47,393 nt of DNA from Candidatus Kuenenbacteria bacterium (GCA_012798565.1 JAAZMX010000040.1:1-47393), one strand, 5' to 3'; shown: positions 10,488 to 47,181, counted from the stretch's first letter. The notes: a model not told the origin generated them from the letters alone. Translations and numbers: made by a program.

Positions 10488-11597
10488 CTTCAAAATGTAA
10501 ACCCCATTTTTATTTTCCGTTTCCAGTCCCAATATCTTAATTATCTTTTCTCCTTCTGCCCCCTCGATTATCCTCGGCTGGCAATAATCCTCAACCAAAA
10601 TAGGCGTTGCCACAATTTGTTTGACGCCCGATTGAGTTAAGGTAATTTTCAATACTACCCCCTCTCTGGTTTCCCGGCTCCACATCTGGTCAAAAACAAA
10701 ATTTCCCAGACTGTAAAAAATATATTTACCCTGATATTTTTCCGCGGTTTGCACCACATGCGGATGGTGGCCGATTACCAGCTCCGCTCCAGCCTCAATC
10801 GCTGCTCTGGCAAAATTCCTCTGCTCTTTGGTCGGCTCATTAGTATATTCCACCCCGGCATGCATTGAGACGATTACCAAATCAGCCTTTGTTTTAGCCG
10901 CCTTGATTGCTTCCGCCATTTCTTCTTTATTCCAGAAAGCCGTACCTGGATTTTTCTCTCCGGCCGCATAATTAGCCGGCACCATGAGTTGTTCCGTTCT
11001 CCCCAGCCAGGCAATAGTTATCCCGCCCACTGTCAGATATTTGGCCTCTCTGGCTTCGCTCAAATTATTTCCCGCACCGATGTATTCTATTTCCGCTTCG
11101 TTTAAATATCCAAAAGTATCCTCCAGCCCTTTTCGCCCAAAATTGGGCGTATGATTATTAGCCAGAGACACTATTCCAAAATTATTATTCTTCAAAATCT
11201 CCGCTACTTTTGGATCAGCCCTAAAGCTCATCTCTCCGCTTTTGATTGTCCGTCCGGCCATGATCGCCGTTTCTAGATTGCCAAAAGCCAGATCAGCTGT
11301 TTTCAGATAAGAACCCATTTTTTCAAAGGGATAATTAAAATTTTTCTGGGTCAACATTTTTTGTTCAACGGTGCGCGAAAGCATCATATCACCAACCGCG
11401 ATTATTTTTATTTCTTCCGATTCGGGCCTTAACCGGTCAGCAGTGCTGGTGGAAAAAATCATCATTTCTTCCTTCTTTATTGGCCCCAGATTAGTTGGTC
11501 TTATCTCCGGCCACCATTTGATTATTAGATAAAACCAGCCCAGAATAAGTATCAGGGCTGCGGCGCTAATCATAAAAAGGATTGTTTTTTTAGACAT
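10485..11597 (-). CDS. CapA/PGA_cap-family metallophosphoesterase-like protein (membrane anchored)
   Basis: IIAVGDMMLSR..., SLANNH and VIGHHPHVVQ motifs, with an N-terminal TM segment. Confidence 0.85.
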   Translation of the reverse strand: MSKKTILFMISAAALILILGWFYLIIKWWPEIRPTNLGPIKKEEMMIFSTSTADRLRPESEEIKIIAVGDMMLSRTVEQKMLTQKNFNYPFEKMGSYLKTADLAFGNLETAIMAGRTIKSGEMSFRADPKVAEILKNNNFGIVSLANNHTPNFGRKGLEDTFGYLNEAEIEYIGAGNNLSEAREAKYLTVGGITIAWLGRTEQLMVPANYAAGEKNPGTAFWNKEEMAEAIKAAKTKADLVIVSMHAGVEYTNEPTKEQRNFARAAIEAGAELVIGHHPHVVQTAEKYQGKYIFYSLGNFVFDQMWSRETREGVVLKITLTQSGVKQIVATPILVEDYCQPRIIEGAEGEKIIKILGLETENKNGVYILK

Positions 11598-14292: not shown

Positions 14293-14356
14293 CTTAAAAT
14301 CAAAATTCAAAAAGCAAAAGTAAAAAATATTAAATAAGTAAAAAAATATTCTTCAC

Positions 14357-23608: not shown

Positions 23609-23650
23609 ATTCCCAGCTTAACAAAAATACCGGCCAAAGTAAAATTATGG

Positions 23651-23689
23651 CAGAAAAAAAGAAAAGCCGTCAGTTGTTACTAACGGCTT
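23651..23689 (-). terminator. Rho-independent terminator after the small membrane ORF
   Basis: On the minus strand: GAAGCCGTTAGTAACAACTGACGGCTT followed by TTCTTTTTTTC. Confidence 0.55.
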
Positions 23690-23955
23690 CATTTCGGCCA
23701 TAAAGAAATAAGGCTGACCATCAGGGCTACGGCGATGAAGATTATGAGACGGATATTGAAGTCCCTATCTCTCAATCTTCTATCCATAAACCAAGGTGAC
23801 CGCTCTCTGATCGCGGCTGTAGCAATCAACGCGCAGGCATTCAGCCCGACTATCACCCACTTCCAGTCGGATTGCAAATTCATTGCCAAACTCAATCCGA
23901 TCAATGCCCCGGCCATCGCCCCTAACCGCAACATTCCCAACAGGAATTTTCTCAC
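23689..23955 (-). CDS. Small (88 aa) three-TM membrane protein, unknown function
   Basis: GTG start preceded by AGGAG at 6-nt spacing. Two sampled 60-nt lines are about 50% G+C, against about 33% in a sampled murD line. Confidence 0.5.
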   Translation of the reverse strand: MRKFLLGMLRLGAMAGALIGLSLAMNLQSDWKWVIVGLNACALIATAAIRERSPWFMDRRLRDRDFNIRLIIFIAVALMVSLISLWPK

Positions 23956-23971
23956 TTTTTACTCCTATCTC

Positions 23972-25192
23972 CTATATAATATTCAATTTATTTATTTCCT
24001 CTCCAAAATTTTCCTTGGCCAGCTTCAGCGCTCTTTTCATCTCCGCCGGCGTACCCACGCATTCAAACGGCTTGATATTTTTTTGGCCCAGCAATTCTTG
24101 AAAGAGTGGTTTTAGTTTCCGGTCAGCATACAGGTTTTTGTTAAAAATATCAAGTAGCTGTTTTTTTTGTAAATGAGCCGAGAGCATCGTCCAGACAAAA
24201 ACGCACTTGGCGCATTCGCCGCACCACTTGCTTTGGGCTTTGGCTGTAAATCTGAAATTTTTATTGCAGGAAGAAAATTTATAAAAATACTGGGGATAAT
24301 GAACAAACATGCCGGCGATTTGCAGTTCGTTAAATTTTCTGAGCTCGCTATAATACCTGATACTCGGGGTGATAAATTTTCGCGCGTAAGCTTGAAACAT
24401 TTTTTCAAATTCTAAAGATTTACTCCACTGGTGATTGATTATTGTACCGCGATATTTGACATTGCCATAATTGGCGCTCTTTTCATTGCCGAGCGCTATT
24501 TCCTTATCCTCATTAATAATCGCCACGGCCAAAGTCAAAAATGCCAGATAGGCGGAAAAGGGGATATGGCCGTTGTAGACACCTTTTTTCTGGTTGAGTG
24601 CTATTAACTCCGGCGCGATTTGCCGCCGGACAGCGATCAGTTTTTCACCGCTAACCTGGGCTGTGTCAATGATAATCTGGTTAGTTTTTTGTTGATTAGT
24701 TAAGTTAAACAAACTAATTTTTTTGCCGCGTGCTTTCAATCTCTCTGCCACGACAATAGAATCTTTACCCCCGCCGATTGGCACCAAAGATTCATTCCGC
24801 GCTTTAATCTTAATAGCCTTTACTTTGTGATTTTTGTCATAGGGAAAATTCACCAAGCCGCGAAAATCGAGTTTATTTTGATAAAAGAATTCTCCCAGAC
24901 CTTTGGTATAAACCTTATCCCAAAAAGTCGCTTGTTCTTTGTTTAGTTTATATTTACCCAAATCAATTACTCGTGGGCAATAAGCTTTATAATAACTGAT
25001 ACCCGCCATTAAAAATAAATTAAATAGCGCCGAATCCAAAGCAGCCCACTGGTTTTTGCTTAATTTATTTTTGACCGCCGGCAAGACCAGTTTCTCCCGA
25101 AGGCGATGTTCGCCACTGGCATAATCAAACAACGCAACCCCAGTCTTGGGGTTGAATTGATATTTTTTAAATTGAAAAGTCTTTTCTGTCAT
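23972..25192 (-). CDS. PP-loop (adenine-nucleotide alpha-hydrolase superfamily) protein with a C-terminal Cys cluster; candidate MurL-like epimerase
   Basis: PIGGGKDSIVVAERL resembles the SGGxDS PP-loop. The C-terminal SSCNKN...WCGECAKC is a QueC-like cysteine cluster. The gene lies one small ORF away from murD. Confidence 0.5.
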   Translation of the reverse strand: MTEKTFQFKKYQFNPKTGVALFDYASGEHRLREKLVLPAVKNKLSKNQWAALDSALFNLFLMAGISYYKAYCPRVIDLGKYKLNKEQATFWDKVYTKGLGEFFYQNKLDFRGLVNFPYDKNHKVKAIKIKARNESLVPIGGGKDSIVVAERLKARGKKISLFNLTNQQKTNQIIIDTAQVSGEKLIAVRRQIAPELIALNQKKGVYNGHIPFSAYLAFLTLAVAIINEDKEIALGNEKSANYGNVKYRGTIINHQWSKSLEFEKMFQAYARKFITPSIRYYSELRKFNELQIAGMFVHYPQYFYKFSSCNKNFRFTAKAQSKWCGECAKCVFVWTMLSAHLQKKQLLDIFNKNLYADRKLKPLFQELLGQKNIKPFECVGTPAEMKRALKLAKENFGEEINKLNII

Positions 25193-33000: not shown

Positions 33001-33128
33001 AATTTAAAGTATATTACTTTTAGGTTTTTTAAGCAAAATATTGACAAAAATTAATTTTTATGTAATAATTATGGGAATAAAAATAAACAGTAACTTTGAC
33101 AAAAGGACATCTAAAGGAGGTGATTTCT

Positions 33129-34307
33129 TTGTCTCGTCCAATGAACTGGCTCCGAAAGGGCCTCATTGCGCTGGTGGTCGGGTTGTTTTTATTTAACCAC
33201 CGGGCAGCCGTCGTCAAACAATACCGTGATAATACGCCAGTTTTAACGAGCGAGGAAATCACGGAATTGGTAGAAAAAGTAGACATGTCGTATAAGACGG
33301 CCAAGGAAAAAATAGCGGCTGGTACTTATACCCCGCTTGATTGGCAGCGGGACGTCTACTTTTGGCAGGTAAAAATCCTGCGACAAATGGGCGGCCAATA
33401 TAACGAAGAGAGATTCTTCGTTCTCGCCGGTCAAGCCCATGAGTATGCAGAAAAGCATTACTACCGGCCAAATGAGCAGGACAAACTTTCGGGTCTGCTT
33501 TTTCGCCAGGAAGTTAACCAGGCTCAAGCCCAGGTCTTGGCGGAAAATGGTGAACGGGTTGATTGGAGTAAAATACTCCAAAAATTACATCGTCTCATGC
33601 TAGTCTTCCTGCCGTATTCTTTGTTGATTATTCTTGTTCGCCGATCAACTAGATATAAATTGTGGCAGATTGTTTCGGCCGGGGACATCATCTGGATCAT
33701 AGTTGCTACCGGCCTGAGCATCTTTGGGGCCGTTGCTTACCGACCCGATAATTTCCTCCAGAAGCGCATTGATTCTCAATTGCAAATCTGGAAGGAGAAA
33801 ATCGGCGCGCATGGTTGGAGATTAGGCCTGGCGTATTTGGTAGCGATTGTTGTTTCCTTGGCCACCTTGATCCGCCCAGCTAAGTCACAAACCCAAATGG
33901 TGGTTGAGACAAAAATTGTTAGCATTGTTCCAGCCGATGCCGCTACCAATCAGGAAGAAGAATCCGATGAACAGATTGTTTTCTTCCCAGAAAAAATCGT
34001 CGGATTTTTGCGGAGAACCTTTGAGGAAGTCATGAGAGGGATTGAGATTATTGTTTTCAGTTTTTTCTTTCTCATGATCACCCAAACTTTTCCCCTGCCA
34101 CTGGAGTATGTCTGTGGTCTCTGGGCCAGGCCACCAGATGAAATTCGCTTTTGGATTGCTCGAGCCATTGGTTCTCGCGCTCCGGCTGATTTTGTCCTTG
34201 TTGCTAATTCACAAAGAACTTGGACAAAATTTTTTACAGGAGCATATTATGAGAACCAAAATGTTTTTTGTACTCGTCCTGGCAGTGGTTTCTTTTGTCA
34301 CTGCTAA
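33129..34307 (+). CDS. Hypothetical membrane protein (several TM segments, acidic linker)
   Basis: Strong SD AAGGAGG (33114-33120) lies 8 nt before the TTG at 33129, with an alternative ATG at 33141. No family recognised. The 3' end overlaps the next gene by 59 nt. Confidence 0.5.
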   Translation: MSRPMNWLRKGLIALVVGLFLFNHRAAVVKQYRDNTPVLTSEEITELVEKVDMSYKTAKEKIAAGTYTPLDWQRDVYFWQVKILRQMGGQYNEERFFVLAGQAHEYAEKHYYRPNEQDKLSGLLFRQEVNQAQAQVLAENGERVDWSKILQKLHRLMLVFLPYSLLIILVRRSTRYKLWQIVSAGDIIWIIVATGLSIFGAVAYRPDNFLQKRIDSQLQIWKEKIGAHGWRLGLAYLVAIVVSLATLIRPAKSQTQMVVETKIVSIVPADAATNQEEESDEQIVFFPEKIVGFLRRTFEEVMRGIEIIVFSFFFLMITQTFPLPLEYVCGLWARPPDEIRFWIARAIGSRAPADFVLVANSQRTWTKFFTGAYYENQNVFCTRPGSGFFCHC

Positions 34308-34845
34308 AGATCAACTACAGCTGGGTTTTCATAACCAGCAAACTGGTTGGTCTCCCAAAATAACCCTGACCGCTGAGGTGGCCCCAAAAGTCACCCTATG
34401 GTTACGTCAGGGAATCGGTTGTTCTGACCCCGCTAGCTTGGCGGGATATGCCTTTCTCTCACGAGAAAAGGTCTGCGGCATTTTTTATGTTGGTCCGAGC
34501 GCCCAGAAGAATTTGCGCGTTAGTGCCATTCGTCTGGAGCTGGATCTGCGTTTTAAAATCGCCGACTTGTCGCCAAGTATCTGGTTGGGCTATGGCCTGA
34601 ACAAATTGGGTGGGCGAGACGATCTCGGCTTTTTATCAGCTTGTTTCTACAAGCCAGGGAATAAAAATTCCTTTGGCTACCGCCTTGATGGGGTTTTTCT
34701 CGCAAGCGGTCAGGAGCAGTTTGTGCGAGCCGGAGTCCTATGGAAATATCAATTTAACCAAGAACTTTCTCTTGTCTCCTGGTTGGGAGGCGAGCACAAG
34801 AGTAAATCTTGTGTTTTGAGAATTATGCTTGGTTGTAGTTTCTAA
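34249..34845 (+). CDS. Small secreted beta-strand-rich protein resembling an outer-membrane beta-barrel (C-terminal Phe)
   Basis: SD AGGAG (34238-34242) lies 6 nt before the ATG. Signal peptide MRTKMFFVLVLAVVSFVTA. About 12 amphipathic strands (RVSAIRLELDLRF, SIWLGYGLN, FGYRLDGVFLAS, VRAGVLWKYQF, LSLVSWLGG), ending ...RIMLGCSF. Confidence 0.55.
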   Translation: MRTKMFFVLVLAVVSFVTAKDQLQLGFHNQQTGWSPKITLTAEVAPKVTLWLRQGIGCSDPASLAGYAFLSREKVCGIFYVGPSAQKNLRVSAIRLELDLRFKIADLSPSIWLGYGLNKLGGRDDLGFLSACFYKPGNKNSFGYRLDGVFLASGQEQFVRAGVLWKYQFNQELSLVSWLGGEHKSKSCVLRIMLGCSF

Positions 34846-35887: not shown

Positions 35888-36961
35888 ATGCATACCTTAG
35901 ATAATCTTTCCCGCTTAGGCCAATTGGACACAAGCAACATGCTGGAATCTATCGCTTTTTTGCCGCGTCAAATTGAGCAAGCCTGGAGTGAAACCGAAAA
36001 ATTAAAAATCCCCGCCAATTACAAAAAGATCAACAAGGTCGTCATCAATGGCATGGGCGGTTCCGGACTCGGCACCCACCTGATCCGCTCCATTTACTTT
36101 AAAGAATTAAAACTTCCCGTCGGCAATATTCATAGTTATGATTTGCCCGGCTTGGTAGACAAAAATACTCTTTATCTTCTTTCCAGTTATTCCGGCACCA
36201 CCGAAGAACCGCTCTCTACTTTTGTCACTGCCAAAAAGCGCGGGGCCAAAATTTTGGGCATTACTTCCGGCGGAGAACTGGCGGCGTTAATTCAAAACGG
36301 CAAACTGCCCGGCTATGTTTTTTCCCCAGAAAAATATAATCCCTGCGGTCAACCGCGTATCGGTCTGGGCTTTTCTGTCGCCGGCATCTTGGGCCTTTTG
36401 AACCGCTGCGGTATTATCAAAACTGACCCCAGAGAAATTACCCGCGCTATTCAAACGGCCAGCAGTCTTAATGATACTTTTTCCGCTCGCACGCCATTTG
36501 CCCAAAACCCAGCCAAGCAAATTGCCGCGGATTTGGCTGACAAAATACCCGTGGTCATCGCCTCGGAATTTCTAGCCGGCAATGCGCACGTCCTCGCCAA
36601 TCAGCTCAACGAGAATGCCAAAACCTTTTCCACCTATTTTCTGATCCCGGAGTTGAATCACCATCTTCTGGAAGGTATGCAGCACCCCAAGACCAATAAA
36701 AATAATTTACATTTTATCTTTTTAGAATCCAATCTCTATCACCCCCGCAACCAAAAACGCTTTACTATTACCAAAGACATTCTCGCCCAAAACAAAATCA
36801 AATACTCTACCTTACCCGCTCTCGGAAACAGCTATCTGGAACAATCTTTCACCACCTTGCTCTTTGGTTCTTATCTCAGTTTTTATCTCGCCATCCTCAA
36901 CAATTTGGATCCCTCCGCTATTCCTTATGTTGATTACTTTAAGGAGAAATTAAGTCACTAA
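35888..36961 (+). CDS. Bifunctional phosphoglucose/phosphomannose isomerase (SIS domain)
   Basis: VVINGMGGSGLG and SSYSGTTEE SIS motifs. The length and C-terminal region fit the PGI/PMI family. Confidence 0.8.
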   Translation: MHTLDNLSRLGQLDTSNMLESIAFLPRQIEQAWSETEKLKIPANYKKINKVVINGMGGSGLGTHLIRSIYFKELKLPVGNIHSYDLPGLVDKNTLYLLSSYSGTTEEPLSTFVTAKKRGAKILGITSGGELAALIQNGKLPGYVFSPEKYNPCGQPRIGLGFSVAGILGLLNRCGIIKTDPREITRAIQTASSLNDTFSARTPFAQNPAKQIAADLADKIPVVIASEFLAGNAHVLANQLNENAKTFSTYFLIPELNHHLLEGMQHPKTNKNNLHFIFLESNLYHPRNQKRFTITKDILAQNKIKYSTLPALGNSYLEQSFTTLLFGSYLSFYLAILNNLDPSAIPYVDYFKEKLSH

Positions 36962-36965
36962 CTAT

Positions 36966-37229
36966 ATGAAACGATATCTCGCTACTCTCTCCATCGTTGT
37001 CACTGACCGTCAAGCCAATGTGGCCAGGGTTAACTCCCTTTTGACGAATAATGGCCACCTAATCATGTCGCGCCTGGGAGTCAATCCAAGCACTGCCTGT
37101 CTGGCTCATTGTCTTGGTATTATTATCTTGGTTTTATCCGGTGAAAAATCCGAAATTCAAAAGCTCGCCATCGACCTGGGCCGGCTCAAGGGCATAAAAG
37201 TCAAGTTGAGTATTATGTTCAGCGAATAA
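36966..37229 (+). CDS. Small ACT/NikR-C-like protein (TM1266-type putative regulator family)
   Basis: The pattern LSIVVTDRQANVARVNSLLTNNGHLIMSRLGV...IIILVLSGEKSEIQKLAIDLGRLKGIKVK recalls the TM1266 family, from my memory of that family only. Confidence 0.4.
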   Translation: MKRYLATLSIVVTDRQANVARVNSLLTNNGHLIMSRLGVNPSTACLAHCLGIIILVLSGEKSEIQKLAIDLGRLKGIKVKLSIMFSE

Positions 37230-37243
37230 GCCCCTACTTATTT

Positions 37244-37273
37244 AGCCGTGTTTTCTAGAAACACGGCTTTTTG
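37244..37273 (+). terminator. Rho-independent terminator
   Basis: AGCCGTGTTT-TCTAG-AAACACGGCT, a perfect 10-bp stem, followed by TTTTTG. Confidence 0.75.
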
Positions 37274-37286
37274 TTATAATAAAAAC

Positions 37287-38885
37287 ATGCCACTATTTAT
37301 TTCTTCCCCCCACCCCAATAAAGCCACGAATTTTCGTCTGGTTTTTTATTTATTATTCTTTTTGGTCGTCAGTGTTTATTTTCTCTGGCTGAATAACTCC
37401 CCGTTTTTTCCTGACCCGGATTCTTTTTACCATGCCAAAATCATTGAGCTGATCCGTGATTCCGGCCCAGTCATTAGTTTTCCCTGGCTGCCCTTTACTA
37501 CCCTTGGGGAGATTTTTATTGACCACCATTTTCTTTATCATTTGGCTGTTTTGCCCCTGACTTATTTCTTGCCCTCTCTTCTGGCCGTCAAACTCGCCGC
37601 TGTTATTTTTGCCGCCCTGGCTATTATCTTGTTTCAGTGGCTTCTGGATAAACTGCAAGTCAGATACTCCTGGCTTTTTACTTTCGTTTTGCTGTTTTCT
37701 GACCAATTTATTTTCCGTCTCAACTTGGCCAAAGCCCCCTCGCTGTCTCTGATTTTTATCTTGCTGGCTATTTATTTTCTTTCTCTATCATCCAGACGTT
37801 GGAGTTGGCCGCTTTTTATCCTCTCCTTTTTCTATGTCTGGCTTTATGGCGGTTGGCCCATACTCTTGGGAATGGGGGTAATTTATTTTATTATCACCGG
37901 GGTTGGCGAGCACTTAGAAGATGTAAAAAAGCAAGCAATCAGCAATATCGGTCAACGTTTAAAATTATTTTTTTCCAAACTGTTTAGTTGGCCAAACTTG
38001 AGGTTGCCCCTTTCTATTTTTTCCGGTCTCTTGGCCGGGCTGATCATCAATCCCTATTTCCCCACCAACCTGCGCTTCTATTGGCAGCAGACCCTTGAGA
38101 TTGGACTCAAAAATTACCGCGGGCTGGTCGATGTTGGCGGTGAATGGTATCCACCCGATTTCTTTGCTTTGGTCAGTCACAACATCTATAGCCTGATTTT
38201 ATTTCTCCTCGCCCTAGTGATCTTTTTTGTTTTCCTGCGCCGGCAGCGCCCGCTCACCTGGCTGGCTCTTTTTTTGAGTCTATTTTTCTTTTTTCTGACT
38301 CTCAAATCCCAGCGCAATATTGAATATGCTATTCCCTTTATTTTGCTTTTTTCCGCCCTGTCATTTTCTTCTTGGCTAGGCTCCGCTCCCCATCCCCGGC
38401 AACTATTTTTGAGCTACCGCCCGCCAGCCATTGTTATTATTCTTTGCTTGATTGTTTGTTTGCCCATTATCTTTTCTTACAATTTTTGGGGGCTTCGGCA
38501 GTCGCTGCGCGGTGGTTTCTCCTGGCATAAACTCGAGGTGAGCTGCGAGTGGCTCAAAAAGAATACCCCGCCTCAAACCCTTATTTTCCATGATAACTGG
38601 GCTGACTTCCCCCTTCTATTTTATCGAAATACCGAGGCTCGTTATCTCCTTGGCCTCGATCCCACTTTTATGTATTTTGAGAATCAAGAAAAATATTTTT
38701 TTTGGCGCGATGCCTCCGCCGGCCGTCTGCCCGGGCCCCTGTGCTCAACTATCAAAAACAACTTCCAGGCCGACTACATTTTTATTACCCAGCTCAACCG
38801 GGCGCTTGACCCCCATCTTGCTTCTGATCCTGGTTGTGTTAAGGTTTATGAGGACACCGAAGCCAGGATTTATCGTATCAATTAG
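37287..38885 (+). CDS. Large polytopic membrane protein, GT-C-fold glycosyltransferase-like
   Basis: About 12-13 TM segments and an early loop motif FPDPDSFYHAK (acidic, EL1-like). A soluble C-terminal domain of about 130 aa contains HDNWADF. TATAAT lies 6 nt upstream of the ATG. Confidence 0.55.
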   Translation: MPLFISSPHPNKATNFRLVFYLLFFLVVSVYFLWLNNSPFFPDPDSFYHAKIIELIRDSGPVISFPWLPFTTLGEIFIDHHFLYHLAVLPLTYFLPSLLAVKLAAVIFAALAIILFQWLLDKLQVRYSWLFTFVLLFSDQFIFRLNLAKAPSLSLIFILLAIYFLSLSSRRWSWPLFILSFFYVWLYGGWPILLGMGVIYFIITGVGEHLEDVKKQAISNIGQRLKLFFSKLFSWPNLRLPLSIFSGLLAGLIINPYFPTNLRFYWQQTLEIGLKNYRGLVDVGGEWYPPDFFALVSHNIYSLILFLLALVIFFVFLRRQRPLTWLALFLSLFFFFLTLKSQRNIEYAIPFILLFSALSFSSWLGSAPHPRQLFLSYRPPAIVIILCLIVCLPIIFSYNFWGLRQSLRGGFSWHKLEVSCEWLKKNTPPQTLIFHDNWADFPLLFYRNTEARYLLGLDPTFMYFENQEKYFFWRDASAGRLPGPLCSTIKNNFQADYIFITQLNRALDPHLASDPGCVKVYEDTEARIYRIN

Positions 38886-38948
38886 CAGTTCGTATAAATC
38901 ATTTTAGATTGTGATAATTGGCCACCTTCTGTTAGCCAATGCCAAATA

Positions 38949-38981
38949 TTGTTAATTGTTTATTGTTAATTGTTTATTGTT
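38949..38981. repeat. Tandem 14-mer (TTGTTAATTGTTTA x2.3; heptamer sub-period) immediately upstream of the GT2 gene
   Basis: Read directly from the sequence. Confidence 0.6.
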
Positions 38982-38984
38982 CTT

Positions 38985-39695
38985 ATGATCTCTATTGTTG
39001 TCCCTGTTTTTAATGAAGCCCTGATTTTGAAGAAAAATATTCTTCAGCTTTTTGAATTTTGTCAAAATAGTTTCAAGGAAGACTGGCAAATTATTATCAG
39101 TGACAATTCCTCCAGTGACCGTACCCCGGCCTTGTCTCAAGAGTTGTCCGCTCAGTATCCAGCCATCAAATATTTCCATCTGAGTCAACGCGGCAAAGGG
39201 CTGGCCGTGATCGCTGCTTGGCAAAAATTTCCCGCTGATATTTATGTTTTTATGGATGCGGACTTGGCGGTTGATTTGACCGCCCTGCCCGCGCTGGTCA
39301 CTGCCCTAAAATCCGGCTCAGATATTGCCGTCGGTTCGCGTTTTCTTGACGCTTCCCAGGTAGAACGTAGTTTTGGCCGTCGGCTTGTTTCTTTTAGTCT
39401 ACACTTGATACTAAAAATATTTTTTCATCTCCAAGTTGCTGATGCGCCCTGCGGCTTCAAGGCCGTCAATCAGAAAGTTATTACCCAAATTATCCCCCTT
39501 ATCAAAAATCAGACCTGGTTTTTTGACACCGAACTCTTGGTCCTGGCCGAGGAAAAACATTTTCTTGTCCAAGAGATACCGGTTATCTGGCGCGAACCCA
39601 AATCATCCGCCCGCCAGAGCAAAGTTTCTCTATTGCGAGTCATCGTCGAATATCTGAAAAATATTTATCAATTACGCCGCCGATTAAATCAATGA
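38985..39695 (+). CDS. GT2-family polyprenyl-phosphate glycosyltransferase (DPM1/DPG-synthase-like)
   Basis: ISIVVPVFNE, SDNSSSDRT, FMDADLA and GFK motifs. Its stop overlaps the next gene's start. Confidence 0.85.
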   Translation: MISIVVPVFNEALILKKNILQLFEFCQNSFKEDWQIIISDNSSSDRTPALSQELSAQYPAIKYFHLSQRGKGLAVIAAWQKFPADIYVFMDADLAVDLTALPALVTALKSGSDIAVGSRFLDASQVERSFGRRLVSFSLHLILKIFFHLQVADAPCGFKAVNQKVITQIIPLIKNQTWFFDTELLVLAEEKHFLVQEIPVIWREPKSSARQSKVSLLRVIVEYLKNIYQLRRRLNQ

Positions 39696-41368
39696 TTATG
39701 CCGCGTCTCAAACTTGATAACACAACCATCTGTCTTCTGATTTTTATTTTGTTTTTTATTTTGTCTTTTTGGTTTACCAAGGCTCCCGTTGCTCAGCTTG
39801 ATTCTATGGCTCCCCAAGGCGGTGATCCTTTTTTGGTCACCTGGATTTGGTCTTGGGAAATGCATCAGCTTCCCATCAATCCACTGACGGTTTTTGATGC
39901 TAATATCTTCGCGCCCTTTAAAAATACCCTGGCCTTTACCGAACACATGTTTGGTTCATTGCTTTTGGCCTGGCCCCTGCTCTTGATTTTTAAAAACATA
40001 ATTCTTGTTTATAATCTTATCTGTCACCTAACCTTTGCGATCGGTGGTCTTGGTATGTATCTATTGGCATATTATCTAACCAAGAATCGAACCGCCTCAT
40101 TTATCGCCGCCTTTATTTATGCTTTTGCGCCTTACAAAATTAATCACTTAGAACATATCAATCTGAGTGGTCTCTGGTTGCCATATTTTTTACTTTACAC
40201 TCAAAAAATATTTGTGCGTTTCTCTTGGCCCAATGCCCTTCTTTTCTTGGGCTTTAGTCTCCTAGTTTTTCTAAACGCCATGCAGTATTTTCTTTTTTTG
40301 CCCTTTGTTTTTATCTTTTTGGCTATTGCCTACTGGCAGCCTGATAGCTGGGCACTTCTCAAAAGAAATTGGTTTAAGATCGCCGTTATTTTTTTAATAT
40401 TTAGCGCCGTTGTCGTGATCTTTACCAAGCCTTATTTTGAAATAAGACAAGAATTTGGTCTTGAACGCGCTATTAATAATATTGAAGGCCTTTCCCCTGA
40501 TTTAATAGATTATTTTATTAGCCCCTTCTTTTACCACATCTTTTATCCAGCCTTTTTCCCTGAATGGGCAATTGGCCCAGGTATTTTCGTTTGGCTATTA
40601 TTAATAACAAGCCTTGTCTTTCTTTTTCGCCGACACGCCATTGATCGTCGGTTGGTCGCTTATAGTACTTTTGGATTATTAGCCTTACTCTGTTCTCTCG
40701 GTTATTATCTCCAGTTCACTCGCGCAGAAACCAGCGGATTATTTGGTCCCTGGGCTATTTTTTATCATCTTCTGCCCGGCTTTGGTAGCATCAGGGCTGT
40801 TGGTCGCTACAGTATTTTTTTTCTCTTAGCCGCCAGTATTATTATTGCTCTCGGTTTGAAAGAATTTTTTCTTATTAAACAAAAAAATAACCTCCCAAAA
40901 ATATTTATAACCAGCGTCGCTCTTTTTATTTTGTTATTTGTAGAGTTTAGCTTTACCACCCCCAAACCTTATAAGCCGCTTTTGTCTGCTCCCGTTGTTT
41001 GTTTCTGGTTAAAGGATCAACCACTGAGTCAAATTTATTTAGAATTGCCCTCTGGTGTGAGTCTGCTGGAGAACAACTGGGATGCTATTTATGAATATTG
41101 GTCTATTTCTCATTTCCAAAAAATAATCAACGGCTATAGTGGTTATTCTCCGCGCGTTCACCAAGAGCTCAATAAACGTTTACTTGATTTTGATTTAGAT
41201 ATTTCTGATTTACAAGCAGCCAAAGATTACGGGGCCACCCGGCTCATTTTCCATTTTGGCTTTTACCCCCCAGGCTTCAAAGAGAAAATAATCAACCTTT
41301 TAGCATCAGGCGATTTTGCTAATCTAATTTATCAGAGCGAGAACGATTATGTTTATCAGATCAAATAA
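39692..41368 (+). CDS. Large polytopic membrane protein (GT-C-like), translationally coupled to the upstream GT2 gene
   Basis: About 13 TM segments. The N-terminal loop reads GGDPFLVTWIWSWEMHQ...FDANIFAPFKNTLAFTEH, and there is a C-terminal soluble domain. Confidence 0.5.
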   Translation: MIMPRLKLDNTTICLLIFILFFILSFWFTKAPVAQLDSMAPQGGDPFLVTWIWSWEMHQLPINPLTVFDANIFAPFKNTLAFTEHMFGSLLLAWPLLLIFKNIILVYNLICHLTFAIGGLGMYLLAYYLTKNRTASFIAAFIYAFAPYKINHLEHINLSGLWLPYFLLYTQKIFVRFSWPNALLFLGFSLLVFLNAMQYFLFLPFVFIFLAIAYWQPDSWALLKRNWFKIAVIFLIFSAVVVIFTKPYFEIRQEFGLERAINNIEGLSPDLIDYFISPFFYHIFYPAFFPEWAIGPGIFVWLLLITSLVFLFRRHAIDRRLVAYSTFGLLALLCSLGYYLQFTRAETSGLFGPWAIFYHLLPGFGSIRAVGRYSIFFLLAASIIIALGLKEFFLIKQKNNLPKIFITSVALFILLFVEFSFTTPKPYKPLLSAPVVCFWLKDQPLSQIYLELPSGVSLLENNWDAIYEYWSISHFQKIINGYSGYSPRVHQELNKRLLDFDLDISDLQAAKDYGATRLIFHFGFYPPGFKEKIINLLASGDFANLIYQSENDYVYQIK

Positions 41369-41371
41369 TCT

Positions 41372-43033
41372 ATGCTCCGCACTCTTCTAAAATCTATCAC
41401 CCGCCGCGAATGGCTTTTTATTCTGGCTGTTTCTGTTTTTGTTATTTTGCTCACCACGGCGCCCTATGTTTATGGCTGGCTGGTTGCCCCGGCCGATTAT
41501 CACTACACCGGTCTGCACTCGCTCACGCCGGGAGATATTCATGTTTATTATTCTTATCTTGAGCAGGTGCGCCAGGGACACTGGCTTTTTTCTGATCTTT
41601 ACACGACCGAGCCCCAGTCATATCCAATGTTAAATATTTTCTGGTTGTTGCTTGGCTTAATAGCCAAAATTTTTTGTCTCTCCAATATTCTTGCCTTTCA
41701 ACTAGCCAGAATTCTTCTGATTCCAGTTTTAGTTTTTGTTTTATATTTTATTTCTGCTTATTTTTTTCGCACCAAAACCTGGCGGACGATTAGCTTCATT
41801 TTTTTAGTTTTTGCTTCTGGCTGGGGCGCAGTGGCCTCCCCTTTTTTGGAGGGGAATGTTTATCAGAAAGGCTGGTATAATTGGCCCCTAGATCTTTGGG
41901 CGCCAGAAAGTAATACCCTTTTGACCCTGCTCCAATCGCCCCACCTCATTCTCTCCACTATTTTTATAATTATCGCCCTCTTTTTATTCTTCCTGTCTTT
42001 GGAGCATCGACAGCTGAAATATAGCCTGGCTGCCGGTTTGTTTTGTTTAGTCCTCTTTACTTTTCACCCCTTTCATATACCCACATTGCTGGCTATCATG
42101 GCCGGTTATTTGTTTTATCAATTTATCAAAAATAAAAAAATTAGTTTTGCCTATCTAAAACATTTTCTGCTCGTCTGCTTGCTTTCTTCACCCGCCGTCA
42201 TTTATTACTTATGGCTATCCTACTATGATGACTTGACCCGTTTCCGCACCCTGCAAAATATCTGTCTGACCCCCTCTCTTTGGGTCACCCTGATCAGTTT
42301 TGGCCCGCTTTTTTTAGGGGCTATTTACGCTCTTTATAATCTCATCCGCCGCCGCGCCTGGACCAATCAAACAGTCTTTCTCACAATTTGGCTGGTGATC
42401 CAGCTTGCTTTCATCTATTCGCCCCTACCTTGGCAGAGGCGCATGCTCCAGGGTTGGCAGATACCCATGACCCTCTTGGCCGTTAGCGGGCTAAATTATC
42501 TCTATGTCTATTTGCGTCGGGTTTTATCGCCCGCTAATTTTGATTTCTATATCCGCAATAAGTATTTAGCGGTCATTGTCTTTATTACCCTGCTTTGTCC
42601 CTCACAGATTTTCAATTTTGTCCGCGAATTTTCTATCTTTACTGATCCTCAATATATCGAACAACTCTATATTTCTCCTGATCGCTTCGCTGGTTATCAG
42701 TGGCTTAAAGATCATCTCGTTGTCACCGATAAGGTGCTTTGCGACATTCTTAACGGTAACCTTATCCCTGGCCAAACCGGTCAGCGTGTTTTTGTCGGTC
42801 ATGGTGTGGAAACCTTATTTTTTGAAAGCAAATCCGCCTTTACTTTTTGGTTTTTTAAAACCAATGATCATGATGATTTAAAACAGCGATTTCTTCGGGA
42901 GAACCATTTGGACTATTTGTTTTTTAGCGGTACAGAGGACGCCATTGGTGATTTTATCCCAGCTGATAAAAATTATCTCCGTTCAGTCTTTCGCTCTGGC
43001 CAAACTGTGATTTATCAGGTAGATTTACCTTAG
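41372..43033 (+). CDS. Large polytopic membrane protein (GT-C-like)
   Basis: About 13 TM segments, an early loop TPGDIHVYYSYLEQVRQG...YTTEP, and a C-terminal soluble domain. Confidence 0.5.
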   Translation: MLRTLLKSITRREWLFILAVSVFVILLTTAPYVYGWLVAPADYHYTGLHSLTPGDIHVYYSYLEQVRQGHWLFSDLYTTEPQSYPMLNIFWLLLGLIAKIFCLSNILAFQLARILLIPVLVFVLYFISAYFFRTKTWRTISFIFLVFASGWGAVASPFLEGNVYQKGWYNWPLDLWAPESNTLLTLLQSPHLILSTIFIIIALFLFFLSLEHRQLKYSLAAGLFCLVLFTFHPFHIPTLLAIMAGYLFYQFIKNKKISFAYLKHFLLVCLLSSPAVIYYLWLSYYDDLTRFRTLQNICLTPSLWVTLISFGPLFLGAIYALYNLIRRRAWTNQTVFLTIWLVIQLAFIYSPLPWQRRMLQGWQIPMTLLAVSGLNYLYVYLRRVLSPANFDFYIRNKYLAVIVFITLLCPSQIFNFVREFSIFTDPQYIEQLYISPDRFAGYQWLKDHLVVTDKVLCDILNGNLIPGQTGQRVFVGHGVETLFFESKSAFTFWFFKTNDHDDLKQRFLRENHLDYLFFSGTEDAIGDFIPADKNYLRSVFRSGQTVIYQVDLP

Positions 43034-43038
43034 AACTT

Positions 43039-43737
43039 ATGCAAGCCGTCGTAATCATTCCCACCTACAATGAAAAGGATAACTTGGCCCAACTGGTCAA
43101 AGCTATTTTTAATTTATCTATTCCCGGTTTATCTGTCTTGATTGTTGATGATAATTCTCCTGACGGTACCGGACAACTAGCCGAAGAACTCGCCGATCAT
43201 TACCCACTTCGGGTTATTCATCGCTCGGGCAAACTCGGACTAGGTTCTGCCTATCGCGAAGGCTTTCGTCATTGTCTCGACCAGGGCGCCGAGTATCTGA
43301 TCGAAATGGACGCTGATTTTTCCCATGACCCCAAAGATCTCCCGCGCTTGCTTGCCGCCGCGACCGGCGCTGATTTGGTTATCGGCTCGCGCAAGGTGCC
43401 CGGCGGGCAGATTATCGGCTGGAATTGGCGCCGCAAATTATATTCCCATGGTGCGATGTTTTTTGCCTGCTTGCTTCTTGGGCTAAAAACCAGAGATATT
43501 ACCGCCGGTTTTCGCTGTTTTCGCGCCTCTGCCCTGCGCGCGATTGATTATACTGGCATAAAGAGTAATGGCTACGCTTTTCAGATTGAAATGGTTTATC
43601 GCCTGGAAAAAGCAGGTCTGAAAATTAATGAATTACCAGTCACTTTTCTGGACCGCCAGCGAGGGTCGTCAAAGCTGGGCACTAAAGATATTCTGGAATT
43701 TTTTAAATTAGTTTTAAAATTAAAATTTTTCCGATGA
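43039..43737 (+). CDS. Polyprenol-monophosphomannose synthase (Ppm1/DPM1-like GT2)
   Basis: VIIPTYNEKDNL, VDDNSPDGT, GKLGLGSAYREGF and EMDADFSHDP motifs. Confidence 0.9.
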   Translation: MQAVVIIPTYNEKDNLAQLVKAIFNLSIPGLSVLIVDDNSPDGTGQLAEELADHYPLRVIHRSGKLGLGSAYREGFRHCLDQGAEYLIEMDADFSHDPKDLPRLLAAATGADLVIGSRKVPGGQIIGWNWRRKLYSHGAMFFACLLLGLKTRDITAGFRCFRASALRAIDYTGIKSNGYAFQIEMVYRLEKAGLKINELPVTFLDRQRGSSKLGTKDILEFFKLVLKLKFFR

Positions 43738-45263
43738 AAAAATCCTCAGTCATTCTTTATTTAGTCCTGATTATTCTAGCCGGCCTCGCTCTGCGGCTGG
43801 TGGCCGTTTTCCATTCGCAAAGTTTTTGGTTTGACGAGATCGTCAGTCTGAAAATTGCCGAAAAGGGCTTGGTCGCCAGCTGGCAATATCTTCAGTGGGA
43901 AAACAATCCGCCGCTCCACTACTGGCTTTTGCATTTCTGGATAAAATTATTTGGTTCCAGTGAATTGGTACTGCGCCTCTCCTCGGTCCTATTCTCCACG
44001 TTAAATATTTTTTTACTTTATCTTTTAGGCAAGAAAATTTCCGGCCGGCCCGCCGTCGGACTCTTCGCCGCCTTGCTCTCGGCTTTTTCCTGCTACCACC
44101 TGTTTACCTCCATGGACGCGCGCATGTATCCGCTTTTGTTATCTTTCGGTTTATTGTCTTTTTATTTTTTCTGGGACTATCTTGAGACCGGTTCGCGCCG
44201 CCAGCTTTTTTTCTACGCCCTATTTGCCGTCGCGGCTCTCTACACCCACCTGACCGCTGTTTTTATTTTTGCCGCCGTCAATCTTTATTGGCTATTTCGG
44301 CGTTTTCTCTGGCGCCAGAAAACCCCGCCGCTTGCCAGCTGGCTTCTGGCCAATCTGTTAGTTATTTTAGCCTGGTTGCCCTGGTTTATCAGTTTCGCTG
44401 TTCACAATCTCTCTCGCCTGTCCACCAGTGCCTGGTATTTCCATACCAACGGCAGCGGTTTTTTTCTGTTTGAATTGCCGCGTTCTTTTTTCTTTTTGGG
44501 TGATGAAATCCCCCTTATAGAACTTTTTGCTCTAATCTTTTTGGGTTTATTATTTTTGTTAGCCTTCTTGCGCCTGAGGGAATTTTCTCTTTTCCGTCAG
44601 GAAATTAAAATAAAATTAGACCCGGCTCCGGGTGCTGTTTTCGCCCTCTTTATATTTATTGTGCCGCTCATGATCGGTTTTTGCTTTCAAGTTTGGGTTT
44701 CCAAATATTATATTCTCGGTAGCGCCGGTCTTTTTCTTATTTTGGCCCTTGGCTTTGACCGCCTGCATCTTCAGAATTTTTATCTGAAGATATCCTTGGC
44801 TGTCCTAATGGTTTTGTTTGCCCCCTATAATTTTTGGATTATCAAAAACCAAGGCCAGCATCAGTGGACCCAGGCCACTGCCTATGTCGAGCAAAATCTG
44901 ACCGCGGGCGATACAATCTTTTTCCCTGCTTTTATTTATGAACTGGTCTTGAATCATTATGCTACCAAGCCCTTGCCACTCAACCACAACCTGACCGCCG
45001 ATCTGGGCACCGACCGCCTGCTTTTGGCTATTAAATATAACTGGTATCCGCTCTTGGACGTCAAGACCTTACCTGACTTTCAGCAATTTTTTCATAATGC
45101 CAAACGTGTTTTTCTGATTTATCCAGACACTTCAGCTCCGGTTCATCGTTCTGAATTGGTGCTTGATTGGTTTTATAATCACGCCTGGACCAAAGTGAGC
45201 GAAAAACATTTTGGCGGCTTTGAGAGAACCACTATTTATATTTTCAAAAATCCGGCCCTCTAA
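43734..45263 (+). CDS. GT39/ArnT/PMT-like glycosyltransferase (PMT_2 type)
   Basis: FWFDEIVSL (DE motif), NNPPLHYWLLHFW..., and about 11 TM segments. Its start overlaps the Ppm1-like stop (ATGA). Confidence 0.85.
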   Translation: MKKSSVILYLVLIILAGLALRLVAVFHSQSFWFDEIVSLKIAEKGLVASWQYLQWENNPPLHYWLLHFWIKLFGSSELVLRLSSVLFSTLNIFLLYLLGKKISGRPAVGLFAALLSAFSCYHLFTSMDARMYPLLLSFGLLSFYFFWDYLETGSRRQLFFYALFAVAALYTHLTAVFIFAAVNLYWLFRRFLWRQKTPPLASWLLANLLVILAWLPWFISFAVHNLSRLSTSAWYFHTNGSGFFLFELPRSFFFLGDEIPLIELFALIFLGLLFLLAFLRLREFSLFRQEIKIKLDPAPGAVFALFIFIVPLMIGFCFQVWVSKYYILGSAGLFLILALGFDRLHLQNFYLKISLAVLMVLFAPYNFWIIKNQGQHQWTQATAYVEQNLTAGDTIFFPAFIYELVLNHYATKPLPLNHNLTADLGTDRLLLAIKYNWYPLLDVKTLPDFQQFFHNAKRVFLIYPDTSAPVHRSELVLDWFYNHAWTKVSEKHFGGFERTTIYIFKNPAL

Positions 45264-45295
45264 GCCGGATTTAAATTGCCAAATTAGTTCTCTCT

Positions 45296-46774
45296 TTAGA
45301 TTTTCCCCCACAAACTGATTGTGCCCGTCTCCTCTATTTTTTTGTAAGAGGACAAAAGTGTTTCCAATCTCTCGTATCCTCGATCATAATATTTTCCCGC
45401 CCAAGCAGAAGTTTTTAAAATATCGTCATAGTATTGATAATCTTTCTCGTCGATGATCACATACTTCGTTTCGTTTTTCGCTCCGTATTCAGCTTGAGCG
45501 AATTGTTGCACCCCCAAGAAATAGTAATGTAGAGCATAAATTTCCCCTCGGCTGGATAGATTTGGCAATAATCTAAAGCTAGCCACTACCCCAGCCCCCG
45601 GCTCTATTTTTTGAATCATTGTTCGCTTCGCCGCCTCCTGGCCGGTGATTTTATTTTTCATTCCCCAAGGTCCAAAGCTCGGCCACAAAGCCAGATTAAA
45701 AATTATGATAATTAAAAATAAAAGTTTGCCGTCCCGGAAATATCGTGTCGCCCACTGATTGGCCCCCTGAAAACCATAAACAAAAGCGAGCACTAGCCCC
45801 GGCAAAAAAAGCGCCGCGTAATGCAATTGCCAAACCAAAGCTCCGCCCCCAGCCGCGGAAAAAATGATTTGTGCCAACGGTATAACAGTTAAAATCAACC
45901 ATTTGGGTTTAAGCGCCGGCAAAAAGAAAAACGGCGCCAGAAAACCGAGTACCATCTCCAGATTTGTCAGAGTGACAAGATGTGCCAATATTTGTCCGAC
46001 ACTAGCCTTAGTTAACCAGCCATAGTAATAAGCAAAAGGCGAAAAATTACTGGGCGAAAAGTGGCTGATAATTTGAAAGGAAACCACCAAATACACAATC
46101 GTCACCAGCAATCCCCAGCTCGCAACTTGTAAAAGCTTTTTATTTTTATTTTTTAAAGCATCAGCGAGGATGATTGTTAGAAAAGTTAATATAATAAAAG
46201 CCACGTCTTCGCGAACGATTAAACATAAAAATACAAGAATATAAAAAGATAAAAATAATTTTTTTGCAGGCTGATCTTTGAGTTTTAAATAATTATAAAA
46301 TAACGAGAAAAATAACAGCGGCAAAAAAGCAATGGCGTGAAATTCATAAAGGTTGATATTGTGTACCAGGGGATTAACGAGCCACAAAAGAGCTAAACCA
46401 AGAGTCAACAAATTTTTACCAAGAATTTTTTGGTTTATTTTGTAAATCGGCCAGGCCGCCAGCCCCAAAGCCAGCGTTTGTAAAATTAAAAGCAGTATCG
46501 GTGATTGCCAAAGATAATAAATCGGCAGGAGTAAAATTAATATTGGTTCAAAATGATCCCCCCAATAATTATGTCCTTGGATTGAGGACCAAAACCAGTT
46601 GCCGTGCGCCGTATTCCAGAGTGCATTATTATAAATCGCCAAATCCAGTCCGTCATACAGAAAATTATGGTATTTCCAAACACACGCTCCAGTCATAACC
46701 AAAACATACAGGCCGATCATCCCAGCCAGCACTTTACCGCTATTTTTTGTGAGCCAAATTTGTAATTTATTCAT
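45296..46774 (-). CDS. DUF2079-family polytopic membrane protein (putative GT-C glycosyltransferase)
   Basis: GLDLAIYNNALWNTAHGNWFWSSIQGHNYWGDHFEPILILLLP is the N-terminal signature as I recall it for DUF2079. TATAAT lies 6 nt upstream of the ATG. Confidence 0.7.
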   Translation of the reverse strand: MNKLQIWLTKNSGKVLAGMIGLYVLVMTGACVWKYHNFLYDGLDLAIYNNALWNTAHGNWFWSSIQGHNYWGDHFEPILILLLPIYYLWQSPILLLILQTLALGLAAWPIYKINQKILGKNLLTLGLALLWLVNPLVHNINLYEFHAIAFLPLLFFSLFYNYLKLKDQPAKKLFLSFYILVFLCLIVREDVAFIILTFLTIILADALKNKNKKLLQVASWGLLVTIVYLVVSFQIISHFSPSNFSPFAYYYGWLTKASVGQILAHLVTLTNLEMVLGFLAPFFFLPALKPKWLILTVIPLAQIIFSAAGGGALVWQLHYAALFLPGLVLAFVYGFQGANQWATRYFRDGKLLFLIIIIFNLALWPSFGPWGMKNKITGQEAAKRTMIQKIEPGAGVVASFRLLPNLSSRGEIYALHYYFLGVQQFAQAEYGAKNETKYVIIDEKDYQYYDDILKTSAWAGKYYDRGYERLETLLSSYKKIEETGTISLWGKI

Positions 46775-46804
46775 AACATCATTATAGCCGTCAGCTAGTT
46801 TCTT

Positions 46805-46848
46805 GGCAAAAGAAAAGGGCAGACCGACAATCAGTCGAGCCGCCCTTT
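46805..46848 (-). terminator. Hairpin plus T-run after the zinc-ribbon ORF
   Basis: On the minus strand: AAAGGGCGGCTCGAC-TGATT-GTCGGTCTGCCCTTT followed by TCTTTTGCC. The stem contains an internal loop. Confidence 0.45.
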
Positions 46849-46863: not shown

Positions 46864-47181
46864 TTAGCGCTTGGTCATGGCCATCTGGCTACACGAACTG
46901 CAGGTTTTTAAACCCACACCCCAGGCATGGTTCCAAGCATAACACTTGGTACAACGCCAGTAGTCATTAGCGTCAATTTTGACTTGGGGTATCATTGGTT
47001 TCTCCGGTTTCCGTGCCGGCAAGGCCCCCAAATTCTTTCGCGTCTGCCGATTCTCCATATCCAGCCGATATCGGCGTGCCGCTGCGGCTGCAATGACGAT
47101 TCCAGGTTTGCCGTTGACAAGAACCCGAAACCGATGGCCGGATATCGGCCGAAACGTGACTGCTCTTTTTGTCTTTTTCAT
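46864..47181 (-). CDS. Small basic protein with a C-terminal CxxC...CxxC zinc-ribbon-like motif
   Basis: WRCTKCYAWNH...KTCSSCSQ. SD AAGGAG lies 6 nt before the ATG. The segment is locally GC-rich and sits directly downstream of the IS transposase. Confidence 0.55.
   Translation of the reverse strand: MKKTKRAVTFRPISGHRFRVLVNGKPGIVIAAAAARRYRLDMENRQTRKNLGALPARKPEKPMIPQVKIDANDYWRCTKCYAWNHAWGVGLKTCSSCSQMAMTKR

Follow-up and report, generated by a model that had tools for sequence, protein, structure and literature searches.

A Patescibacteria locus predicted to glycosylate on the outer face of the cell membrane, in an expanded Candidatus Kuenenbacteria form with GT-C families lacking a Pfam model

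Multi-component transmembrane glycosylation systems are known from monoderm bacteria (CsbB/GtcA/YfhO, GtlA/GtlB, CsdAB/CD/EF, GacI/GacL, and GtsABC), and adjacent genes for a GT-A and a GT-C glycosyltransferase (GT) are their hallmark (PMC8035078). The other close parallels are the actinobacterial polyprenyl-phosphate-mannose pathway, which comprises Ppm1, Pmt (GT39), PimE (GT87), and MptA/MptB building lipomannan, the STT3/AglB/PglB enzymes together with DPY19, and the ArnC/ArnT pair (undecaprenyl-phosphate-Ara4N synthase plus GT83 transferase). We analyzed a 47,393-nt stretch of DNA from Candidatus Kuenenbacteria (GCA_012798565.1 JAAZMX010000040.1:1-47393), termed the window below. Its positions 35888-46774 hold a cluster of nine open reading frames (ORFs), including two GT2 synthases (GT2a and GT2b) and five large membrane proteins (A, B, C, D, and E). 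This cluster is most probably a locally expanded form of a conserved Patescibacteria locus whose products glycosylate targets on the outer side of the cytoplasmic membrane. The scheme of a lipid-linked monosaccharide donor serving a GT-C enzyme is well established, and the finding extends it, lineage-wide, with new GT-C families. A first-pass annotation had proposed a multi-step surface glycan or protein-glycosylation pathway, and the core of this proposal is supported by protein folds, motifs, synteny, and synthases of the dolichol-phosphate-mannose synthase (DPMS) type. The adjacency of GT2 and GT-C genes matches the hallmark named above and thus also counts in favor of this reading.

GT2a (38985-39695) and GT2b (43039-43737), both on the plus strand, are predicted cytoplasmic synthases of polyprenyl-phosphate-hexose. 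In the family scans of the window proteins with Pfam and NCBIfam models, both matched Glycos_transf_2 (PF00535; 1.4e-24 for GT2a and 6.4e-32 for GT2b), and their NCBIfam equivalog scores all fell far below the cut-offs. By far the nearest solved relative of the two was the DPMS of Pyrococcus furiosus (5mlz), with E-values of 1.1e-24 for GT2a and 3.6e-39 for GT2b (residues 2-228). ArnC was the second-best solved relative of both at about 1e-9 (about 5e-9 for GT2a), and GtrB gave a weaker match (about 2e-4) for GT2b only. The metal-binding DAD motif was found in each synthase: MDADFSHDP in GT2b aligns with MDADLQHPP of 5mlz, and GT2a has MDADLAVDL. The annotation had called one enzyme a GT2 synthase and the other Ppm1/DPM1-like; with these matches, the DPMS/Ppm1-like label suits both. 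Unlike CsbB and GtrB, they consist of a catalytic domain of about 235 aa without C-terminal transmembrane (TM) helices, and by their sequences they resemble the soluble DPM1/Ppm1 type. Given their identity of just 27%, GT2a and GT2b probably differ in the lipid-linked donor that they make or in the partner that they serve. The sugar handled by GT2b is probably mannose, a guess guided by the DPMS similarity, by the phosphoglucose/phosphomannose isomerase (PGI/PMI) homolog at the head of the locus, and by the GT87/ALG3-like or MptA_B-family neighbors seen in relatives.

The membrane proteins A (532 aa, 37287-38885), B (558 aa, 39692-41368), and C (553 aa, 41372-43033), all encoded on the plus strand, had been described as three polytopic proteins that match no nameable family. 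This proved correct, as none of them gave a credible Pfam or NCBIfam match. Sequence-profile searches of the Protein Data Bank (PDB) with family alignments of A, B, C, D, and E yielded nothing significant; the C profile returned just spurious nanobody matches. Structure models were calculated for A and C with AlphaFold on the family alignments, and were compared with the PDB using Foldseek. Both models scored well (A: pLDDT 93, pTM 0.91; C: pLDDT 95, pTM 0.94). At E ≤ 1e-3, 27 matches were obtained for A and 29 for C, all of them GT-C enzymes. The top match of A was STT3 (1e-10, TM-score 0.61), followed by AglB, DPY19, PglB, AftD, ALG9/12, and AftA. For C, STT3 (4e-9) was followed by DPY19, AglB, AftA, PglB, AftD, and ArnT. 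According to these models, A and C adopt GT-C folds with high confidence. Like STT3, AglB, PglB, and DPY19 (E 1e-10 to 1e-6, query-normalised TM-score 0.5-0.64), they have about 13 TM helices and a C-terminal outer domain, which spans 115 aa in A, and an acidic motif opens their first outer loop. They differ from these enzymes in that the identity is just 10-14% or so, the WWDYG, DK, and MI motifs are missing, and the outer domain is far smaller.

The conserved residues of these proteins point in the same direction. In A, the motifs are [D/E]43-P-D45-S-F-Y-H, E286-W287, W438, and G456-L-D-P-T-F; of 59 sequences, 57 have an acidic residue at position 43 and 58 retain D45. The C family retains D55 in all 62 sequences, with D174, H477, E480, and K487 likewise invariant and E179 present in 61; a few of its members touch DUF6541. 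B has D45 after TM1 in 34/34 sequences, D carries D34 (7/8) and E35 (8/8) following TM1, and E has D44 after TM1 (35/37). An acidic residue straight after TM1 is therefore kept in all five membrane protein families. GT-C enzymes have their catalytic base at this position, and we predict a catalytic role for the residue here.

B can be placed through its relatives. Among the 34 that were scanned, PTPS_related was matched by five, DUF2079 by two, and YfhO by one, with window B itself giving no Pfam match; some relatives carry precomputed DUF6311 matches, and one is named 'YfhO family protein' by NCBI. B is a probable GT-C transferase, remotely related to YfhO, PTPS_related, and PMT_2. Pairwise BLASTP detected no similarity between B and C, and their relation became visible only in profile-profile comparison, where hhalign gave 96-97% over about 360 columns. 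The same method connected B with D (96% over 271 columns), A with C (96%, across the final two TM helices together with the C-terminal outer domain), and A with D (84%). A, B, C, and D thus look like a single diverged radiation of PMT_2/YfhO-like GT-Cs with a small C-terminal outer domain. In the families of A, B, and C, every relative with a taxon-specific name belongs to Patescibacteria, and the nearest named one is Candidatus Kuenenbacteria. An exhaustive profile search at E ≤ 1e-30 returned about 1,500 clusters (50% identity) for family A. These three are unnamed families, and family A has so far been found only in Patescibacteria.

D (509 aa, 43734-45263, plus strand) matched PMT_2 with 8e-15 (55.8 bits) and PMT (PF02366) with 1.4e-5 (25.3 bits against a cut-off of 22.7); the ArnT model of NCBIfam scored 19.7 bits. 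The D-E motif is common to PMT_2 and ArnT-like enzymes and hence not specific to GT39. No PMT_4TMC match appeared at E ≤ 0.1 in the Pfam scan, and no PDB sequence match at E ≤ 1, thus none to the solved Pmt1/Pmt2 either. The D-family profile touched ArnT alone in the PDB, with a non-significant E of 0.41. Assignment of D as a GT39 Pmt was rejected on these grounds (no PMT_4TMC, no Pmt1/2 similarity, a marginal PMT score); judged by its matches, D is a generic PMT_2 protein and not a demonstrable GT39 Pmt. The annotation had seen the Ppm1 plus GT39 pairing as a mirror of actinobacterial protein O-mannosylation. The Ppm1-like half of this comparison stands with GT2b, but the GT39 half is not demonstrable, and the actinobacterial analogy is consequently no better supported than the GT-A/GT-C wall-polymer pairs of Gram-positive bacteria.

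E (492 aa, 45296-46774) lies on the minus strand, convergent with the cluster. It matched DUF2079 (PF09852) with 9.5e-50. The score was 170.4 bits (cut-off 28.2) and the match extended over positions 2-424 of the 459 in the model; by this criterion, E is a bona fide member of the family. D73-H74, E144-F-H146, and E189 are invariant, and R188 and D190 nearly so. We presume that E is a GT-C-like transferase, given its DUF2079 membership and its motifs; DUF2079 is a family that we take to be placed in the Pfam GT-C clan. Of the five GT-C-like proteins that had been proposed, A and C are borne out by fold and B and D by hhalign, and E is presumptively assigned through DUF2079 and its motifs.

To examine relatives of the locus, one genome per species was scanned with a pattern for A, and the gene order was surveyed in the best 80 loci by ORF and HMM analysis. 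At least 546 species genomes encode a relative of A. Among the best 80 loci, all those with a phylum-level label are titled Patescibacteria, others just 'bacterium', and several 'uncultured Gammaproteobacteria'; the Patescibacteria lineages include Kuenen-, Falkow-, Buchanan-, Kerfeld-, and Komeilibacteria, Parcubacteria, and Microgenomatus. PGI lies immediately upstream of A in 51 of the 80 loci and a GT2 gene downstream of A in 48. C is present in 43-44, and a convergent E closes the cluster in 36. B and D occur in eight and six loci, respectively, as rare, lineage-specific additions. The commonest direct neighbors were A-GT2a (21), GT2b-C (11), GT2a-GT2b (9), GT2a-C (6), and GT2b-D (4). The ancient core is PGI-A(-GT2a) plus GT2b-C with a convergent E; B and D extend it in the Kuenenbacteria-type version seen in the window. 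The two GT2/GT-C modules pictured earlier do have real overlaps, but the conserved neighbors are PGI-A, A-GT2a, and GT2b-C.

In locus L001, which shares 37-52% identity, the gene order matches on both sides of a divergent promoter region: PfkB, Mur ligase, NTP_transferase, and FemAB stand on one side, and PGI, TM1266-like, A, GT2, GT2, B, C, GT2, and PMT_2 on the other. Peregrinibacteria-like and Buchananbacteria loci have PGI-A followed by GT87 or MptA_B-family GT-Cs, GT2s, 550-aa membrane proteins, and a convergent DUF2079 gene. Insertions into the block comprise GT87/ALG3-like GT-Cs (24 loci), methyltransferases, PAP2 proteins, and, in five loci, an LtaS-like membrane protein with a sulfatase domain. 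The annotation had proposed chance juxtaposition as the reading to adopt if the three unassigned proteins lacked both a GT-C fold and conserved acidic loop residues and relatives did not keep the gene order. A and C have GT-C folds, the acidic residues are kept, and the order is conserved, so that the glycosylation proposal was not refuted; recurrence in dozens of distantly related genomes argues for more than chance juxtaposition.

Further observations were made on these relatives. Complete genomes with the locus include CP181398.1 and OZ246416.1. Many metagenome-assembled genomes titled 'uncultured Gammaproteobacteria bacterium' carry the locus (L013, L018, L021, which is the 886-kb chromosome OZ246416.1, L037, and others); from gene content and a context like that of the candidate phyla radiation (CPR), these titles look like mislabels. 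The LtaS-like protein (5 TM helices plus sulfatase, 6.8e-41) adjoins A in five Buchananbacteria-like loci, directly after it in L036, L039 (11509-13653), L044, and L076 and directly before it in L068, which makes a teichoic-acid-like polymer a candidate acceptor in these lineages. In relatives, E is typically the last gene of a minus-strand operon that starts with an SBP_bac_1 solute-binding protein gene and contains arrays of 1-11 T4SS_pilin-like genes (PF18895, about 140 aa). These genes number 165 in 37 loci, and in 26 of 38 cases they stand directly upstream of E (for example, L003:18426-21401, L013, L022, L027, L046, and L055). The pilin-like arrays may be glycosylation targets or an unrelated conserved neighborhood. 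The window ends 619 nt past the start of E, so this association is not visible there. A 105-aa basic, Cys-rich ORF (zinc-ribbon-like CxxC...CxxC, 46864-47181, minus strand) without a family match lies upstream of E, at the place where relatives carry pilin-like genes.

The ORF listing reproduced every gene reported for the cluster, with coordinates and strands. The first gene is the conserved PGI/PMI-family sugar-phosphate isomerase (SIS domains; 35888-36961, plus strand), which matched bact-PGI_C with 2.3e-39; its best NCBIfam models are bifunctional phosphoglucose/phosphomannose isomerases (278 bits), all below their cut-offs. It is followed by an 87-aa TM1266-like small soluble protein (36966-37229, plus strand; PF21699, 8.8e-13), ACT/NikR-C-like, whose place between PGI and A is shared only by the closest relatives (L001, L004, and L005). 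The stop codon of GT2a and the start codon of B share ATGA at 39692-39695, as do those of GT2b and D at 43734-43737. Both overlaps noted before are therefore literal in the sequence, and the remaining intergenic gaps of the cluster measure 3-100 nt. Since overlaps and 3-8 nt gaps are common among same-strand genes elsewhere in the window, the ATGA overlaps fit translational coupling without being distinctive.

Two regulatory candidates were found. A terminator-like hairpin with an 11-bp stem and a subsequent T-run (37244-37268, plus strand) ranked first in the terminator scan. PGI and the small protein may thus be transcribed apart from A-D, or the hairpin may be an attenuator. An alternative GTG start of A at 37248 falls within it, which makes the ATG at 37287 the better start. 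Just upstream of E, a sigma-70-like promoter match (TTGCCA-17-TATAAT, 46781-46809, minus strand) had 11 of 12 consensus positions, the best in the scan, as a consensus match only.

From these elements, the following route can be proposed. The soluble DPM1/Ppm1-type enzymes GT2a and GT2b would load polyprenyl phosphate, the presumed lipid carrier, with a hexose taken from a nucleotide sugar, at the inner face of the membrane. The polyprenyl-phosphate-sugar would then be flipped by a component encoded outside the window. Acceptors outside the membrane would receive the sugar from as many as five polytopic transferases of the GT-C type (A-D and probably E), each predicted to be catalytically active. 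The PGI/PMI-family isomerase would most plausibly tie the pathway to fructose-6-phosphate, mannose-6-phosphate, and glucose-6-phosphate. As for the product, we consider it close to an even call that the locus builds up or decorates, step by step, a glycopolymer or lipoglycan of the cell surface, and we favor this option over protein glycosylation. The preference stems from the many distinct GT-Cs working on monosaccharide donors, from the GT87/ALG3-like and LtaS-like genes in relatives, and from the LCP and peptidoglycan genes nearby.

This route resembles the multi-component systems of monoderm bacteria in several respects. A gene for a GT2/GT-A polyprenyl-phosphate-sugar synthase adjoins one for a polytopic GT-C, the GT-Cs have an outer-loop acidic motif and belong to PMT_2, YfhO-like, or no Pfam families, AftD, STT3, AglB, and PglB are the structural homologs, and several pairs per genome are possible. 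In contrast with those systems, the window holds no GtrA-type flippase, and five GT-Cs, three of them from unnamed families, are gathered in a single PGI-headed locus. The multi-component systems act on lipoteichoic acid, wall teichoic acid, or secondary cell-wall polysaccharides. With the actinobacterial pathway, the locus shares a soluble DPM1-type synthase (GT2b) and the use of many GT-Cs on one lipid-monophosphate sugar donor, and in related Patescibacteria GT87/ALG3-like or MptA_B-family GT-Cs stand in the same cluster. That pathway is not known to have a flippase either. The differences are that D is not demonstrably GT39, that A, B, and C fall outside GT87, MptA/B, and Emb, that genes for a phosphatidylinositol anchor were not identified (the gene of the IMPase family being non-specific), and that the use of mannose is a prediction. 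A GT2 synthase with a PMT_2-family GT-C also recalls ArnC/ArnT, but neither lipid A nor further Arn genes turned up in the window or related loci, and the likeness stays at the superfamily level.

Several points weigh against the assignment to outer-face glycosylation. No GtrA/Wzx-type flippase was found in the 47-kb window, in which all plausible ORFs were scanned and a hydropathy screen was run. The small multi-TM ORFs from this screen gave no GtrA/Wzx match, and an 88-aa ORF with 3 TM helices (23689-23955) had only a weak match to TauE; the flippase may be encoded elsewhere in the genome. An initiating phosphoglycosyl transferase and an obvious acceptor gene are likewise absent from the cluster. 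The upstream nucleotidyltransferase is nearest to the GlmU N-domain, AglF, and long RmlA, all of which it fits far better than mannose-1-phosphate guanylyltransferase (60 bits to that model), and so gives no evidence of a GDP-mannose supply. The fold evidence comprises the models of A and C, with B, D, and E judged by sequence, and hhalign comparisons of E with the other four were weak (20-64%). The PGI-A adjacency could be explained as inherited synteny without a functional link. In the literature searched, we found no description of the cluster or of families A, B, and C; the sole related remark concerns Peribacteria genomes, in which about eight genes are annotated as 'dolichol-phosphate mannosyltransferase' (PMC4736985).

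Of the alternatives, protein glycosylation is the strongest, and we hold it to be a possibility of appreciable weight. The GT-Cs would then put single hexoses from polyprenyl-phosphate-sugar onto secreted or surface proteins, as modeled by Ppm1/Pmt in Actinobacteria and by DPY19/PMT in eukaryotes, with pilin-like, S-layer, and adhesin proteins as candidate targets. The nearest solved structures to A and C (STT3, AglB, DPY19, and PglB) do modify proteins, but this ranking may mirror the shared 13-TM GT-C architecture, as the TM-scores are about 0.6 and the identity is about 11%. D matches both PMT and PMT_2 and has the D-E motif, and GT2b is DPMS/Ppm1-like; yet the PMT match is marginal, PMT_4TMC is not matched, and in monoderm bacteria the substrates that PMT_2 proteins decorate are mostly wall polysaccharides and teichoic acids (PMC8035078). 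The pilin-like operons that E ends in relatives would offer acceptors, although these arrays lie outside the window and are tied to E rather than to A-D. The GT87/ALG3-like and LtaS-like neighbors in relatives suggest glycolipid or polymer work instead.

It is highly improbable that A and/or C is a true oligosaccharyltransferase, one that transfers a pre-assembled oligosaccharide from a polyprenyl-diphosphate carrier to Asn. STT3, AglB, and PglB are the best structural matches of the two, and A has the D-x-D-type [D/E]43-P-D45 after TM1, the invariant E286 in a later loop, and W438-[D/A]-[D/E]-F-P at the start of the outer domain, where oligosaccharyltransferases have WWDYG. However, WWDYG occurs in neither A nor C, and the residue after W438 is Ala in window A. 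The match to archaeo_STT3 was weak (E 0.005, 15 bits against a cut-off of 450), Pfam STT3 was not matched, and the outer domain extends over just 115-130 aa or so. The gene context also differs, as the cluster supplies monosaccharides linked through a monophosphate (DPMS-like synthases) and not oligosaccharides linked through a diphosphate, and it has no phosphoglycosyl transferase, cytoplasmic GT series, or Wzx/PglK flippase. Classification of A and C as GT66 was rejected for lack of WWDYG and of an STT3 family-model match.

Least probable, by a small margin, is a mere inherited gene order in compact genomes, with membrane proteins for transport or scaffolding and GT2s serving other pathways: spacing is tight throughout the window and some GT-C-fold proteins are non-catalytic (PIG-U is among the weak Foldseek matches), but GT2 genes recur beside A, B, C, or D across lineages sharing 35-40% identity in A, the acidic residues at the catalytic position are invariant or nearly so, and all significant structural matches are active GT-C enzymes.

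With outer-face glycosylation as the preferred reading, the locus bears on a little-known part of bacterial biology. The CPR, or Patescibacteria, make up a large share of bacterial diversity and live attached to other cells, and their surface chemistry is almost unknown. Here, a lineage with small genomes spends about 11 kb of a 47-kb window on outer-face glycosylation. Dozens of the loci surveyed in relatives share the core of PGI-A with GT2 and C, and the locus defines at least two sizeable GT-C families that lack a Pfam model. The two small soluble synthases and the invariant Asp in each transferase offer targets for biochemistry, by which the question of what coats a CPR cell becomes directly testable. 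A more far-reaching and rather speculative idea is that Patescibacteria assemble a lineage-wide surface glycoconjugate wholly at the cell membrane's outer face from polyprenyl-phosphate-hexose, through GT-C families so far known from this phylum alone (A, B, and C), the ancient core being A and PGI. If this were true, the product could be a polymer resembling mannan or lipoglycan, or else pilin-like or adhesin proteins that carry sugars, and it could be a main determinant of the envelope and of host-cell attachment in these episymbionts.

The sugar genes upstream, on the minus strand, had been suggested as a source of the activated sugar. They are present (an IMPase, two PGM/PMM mutases, a PfkB kinase, and an NTP_transferase), but tRNA-Cys and the genes for a NUDIX protein, FemAB, MurL, and a Mur ligase are scattered among them. 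One mutase is nearest to archaeal-type GlmM by NCBIfam and the other is a generic PMM/PGM; the kinase is ribokinase-like, and the IMPase-family protein is non-specific. A dedicated GDP-mannose pathway was rejected in view of the GlmM-like mutase, the GlmU-N/AglF/RmlA-type transferase, and the MurL, Mur ligase, and FemAB genes. By its family matches, the block looks mainly like general cell-wall (peptidoglycan) and UDP-sugar supply, and not like a dedicated donor pathway. The Mur ligase adjoins a MurL-type UDP-MurNAc-L-Ala-L-Glu epimerase (22259-25192, minus strand; NF041275, 354 bits, below the cut-off), a pair that resembles the MurL-type D-Glu route in peptidoglycan and has the 88-aa ORF mentioned above between its members.

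Among the other genes of the window, an LCP ligase is encoded at 16350-17876. The Rfam and tRNA scans of the window returned just tRNA-Val and tRNA-Cys. At 10485-14310 (minus strand), a P-type cation ATPase gene shares 8 nt at its end with a gene of the PGA_cap/CapA family (2.8e-77). An HtrA-like PDZ protease (6346-7569) stands between two genes for 23S rRNA-intervening-sequence proteins (PF05635; 5877-6311 and 7660-8025, both minus strand). A 266-aa protein with a 'viral BACON' domain (PF19190, 1.4e-12; 3304-4104, minus strand) is encoded beside a 413-aa protein without a family. Between FemAB and FtsJ, at 33096-34845 (plus strand), lies a pair of ORFs that overlap and lack family matches, one of 403 aa with about 5 TM helices and one of 245 aa; L004 carries family-less ORFs at the equivalent position.

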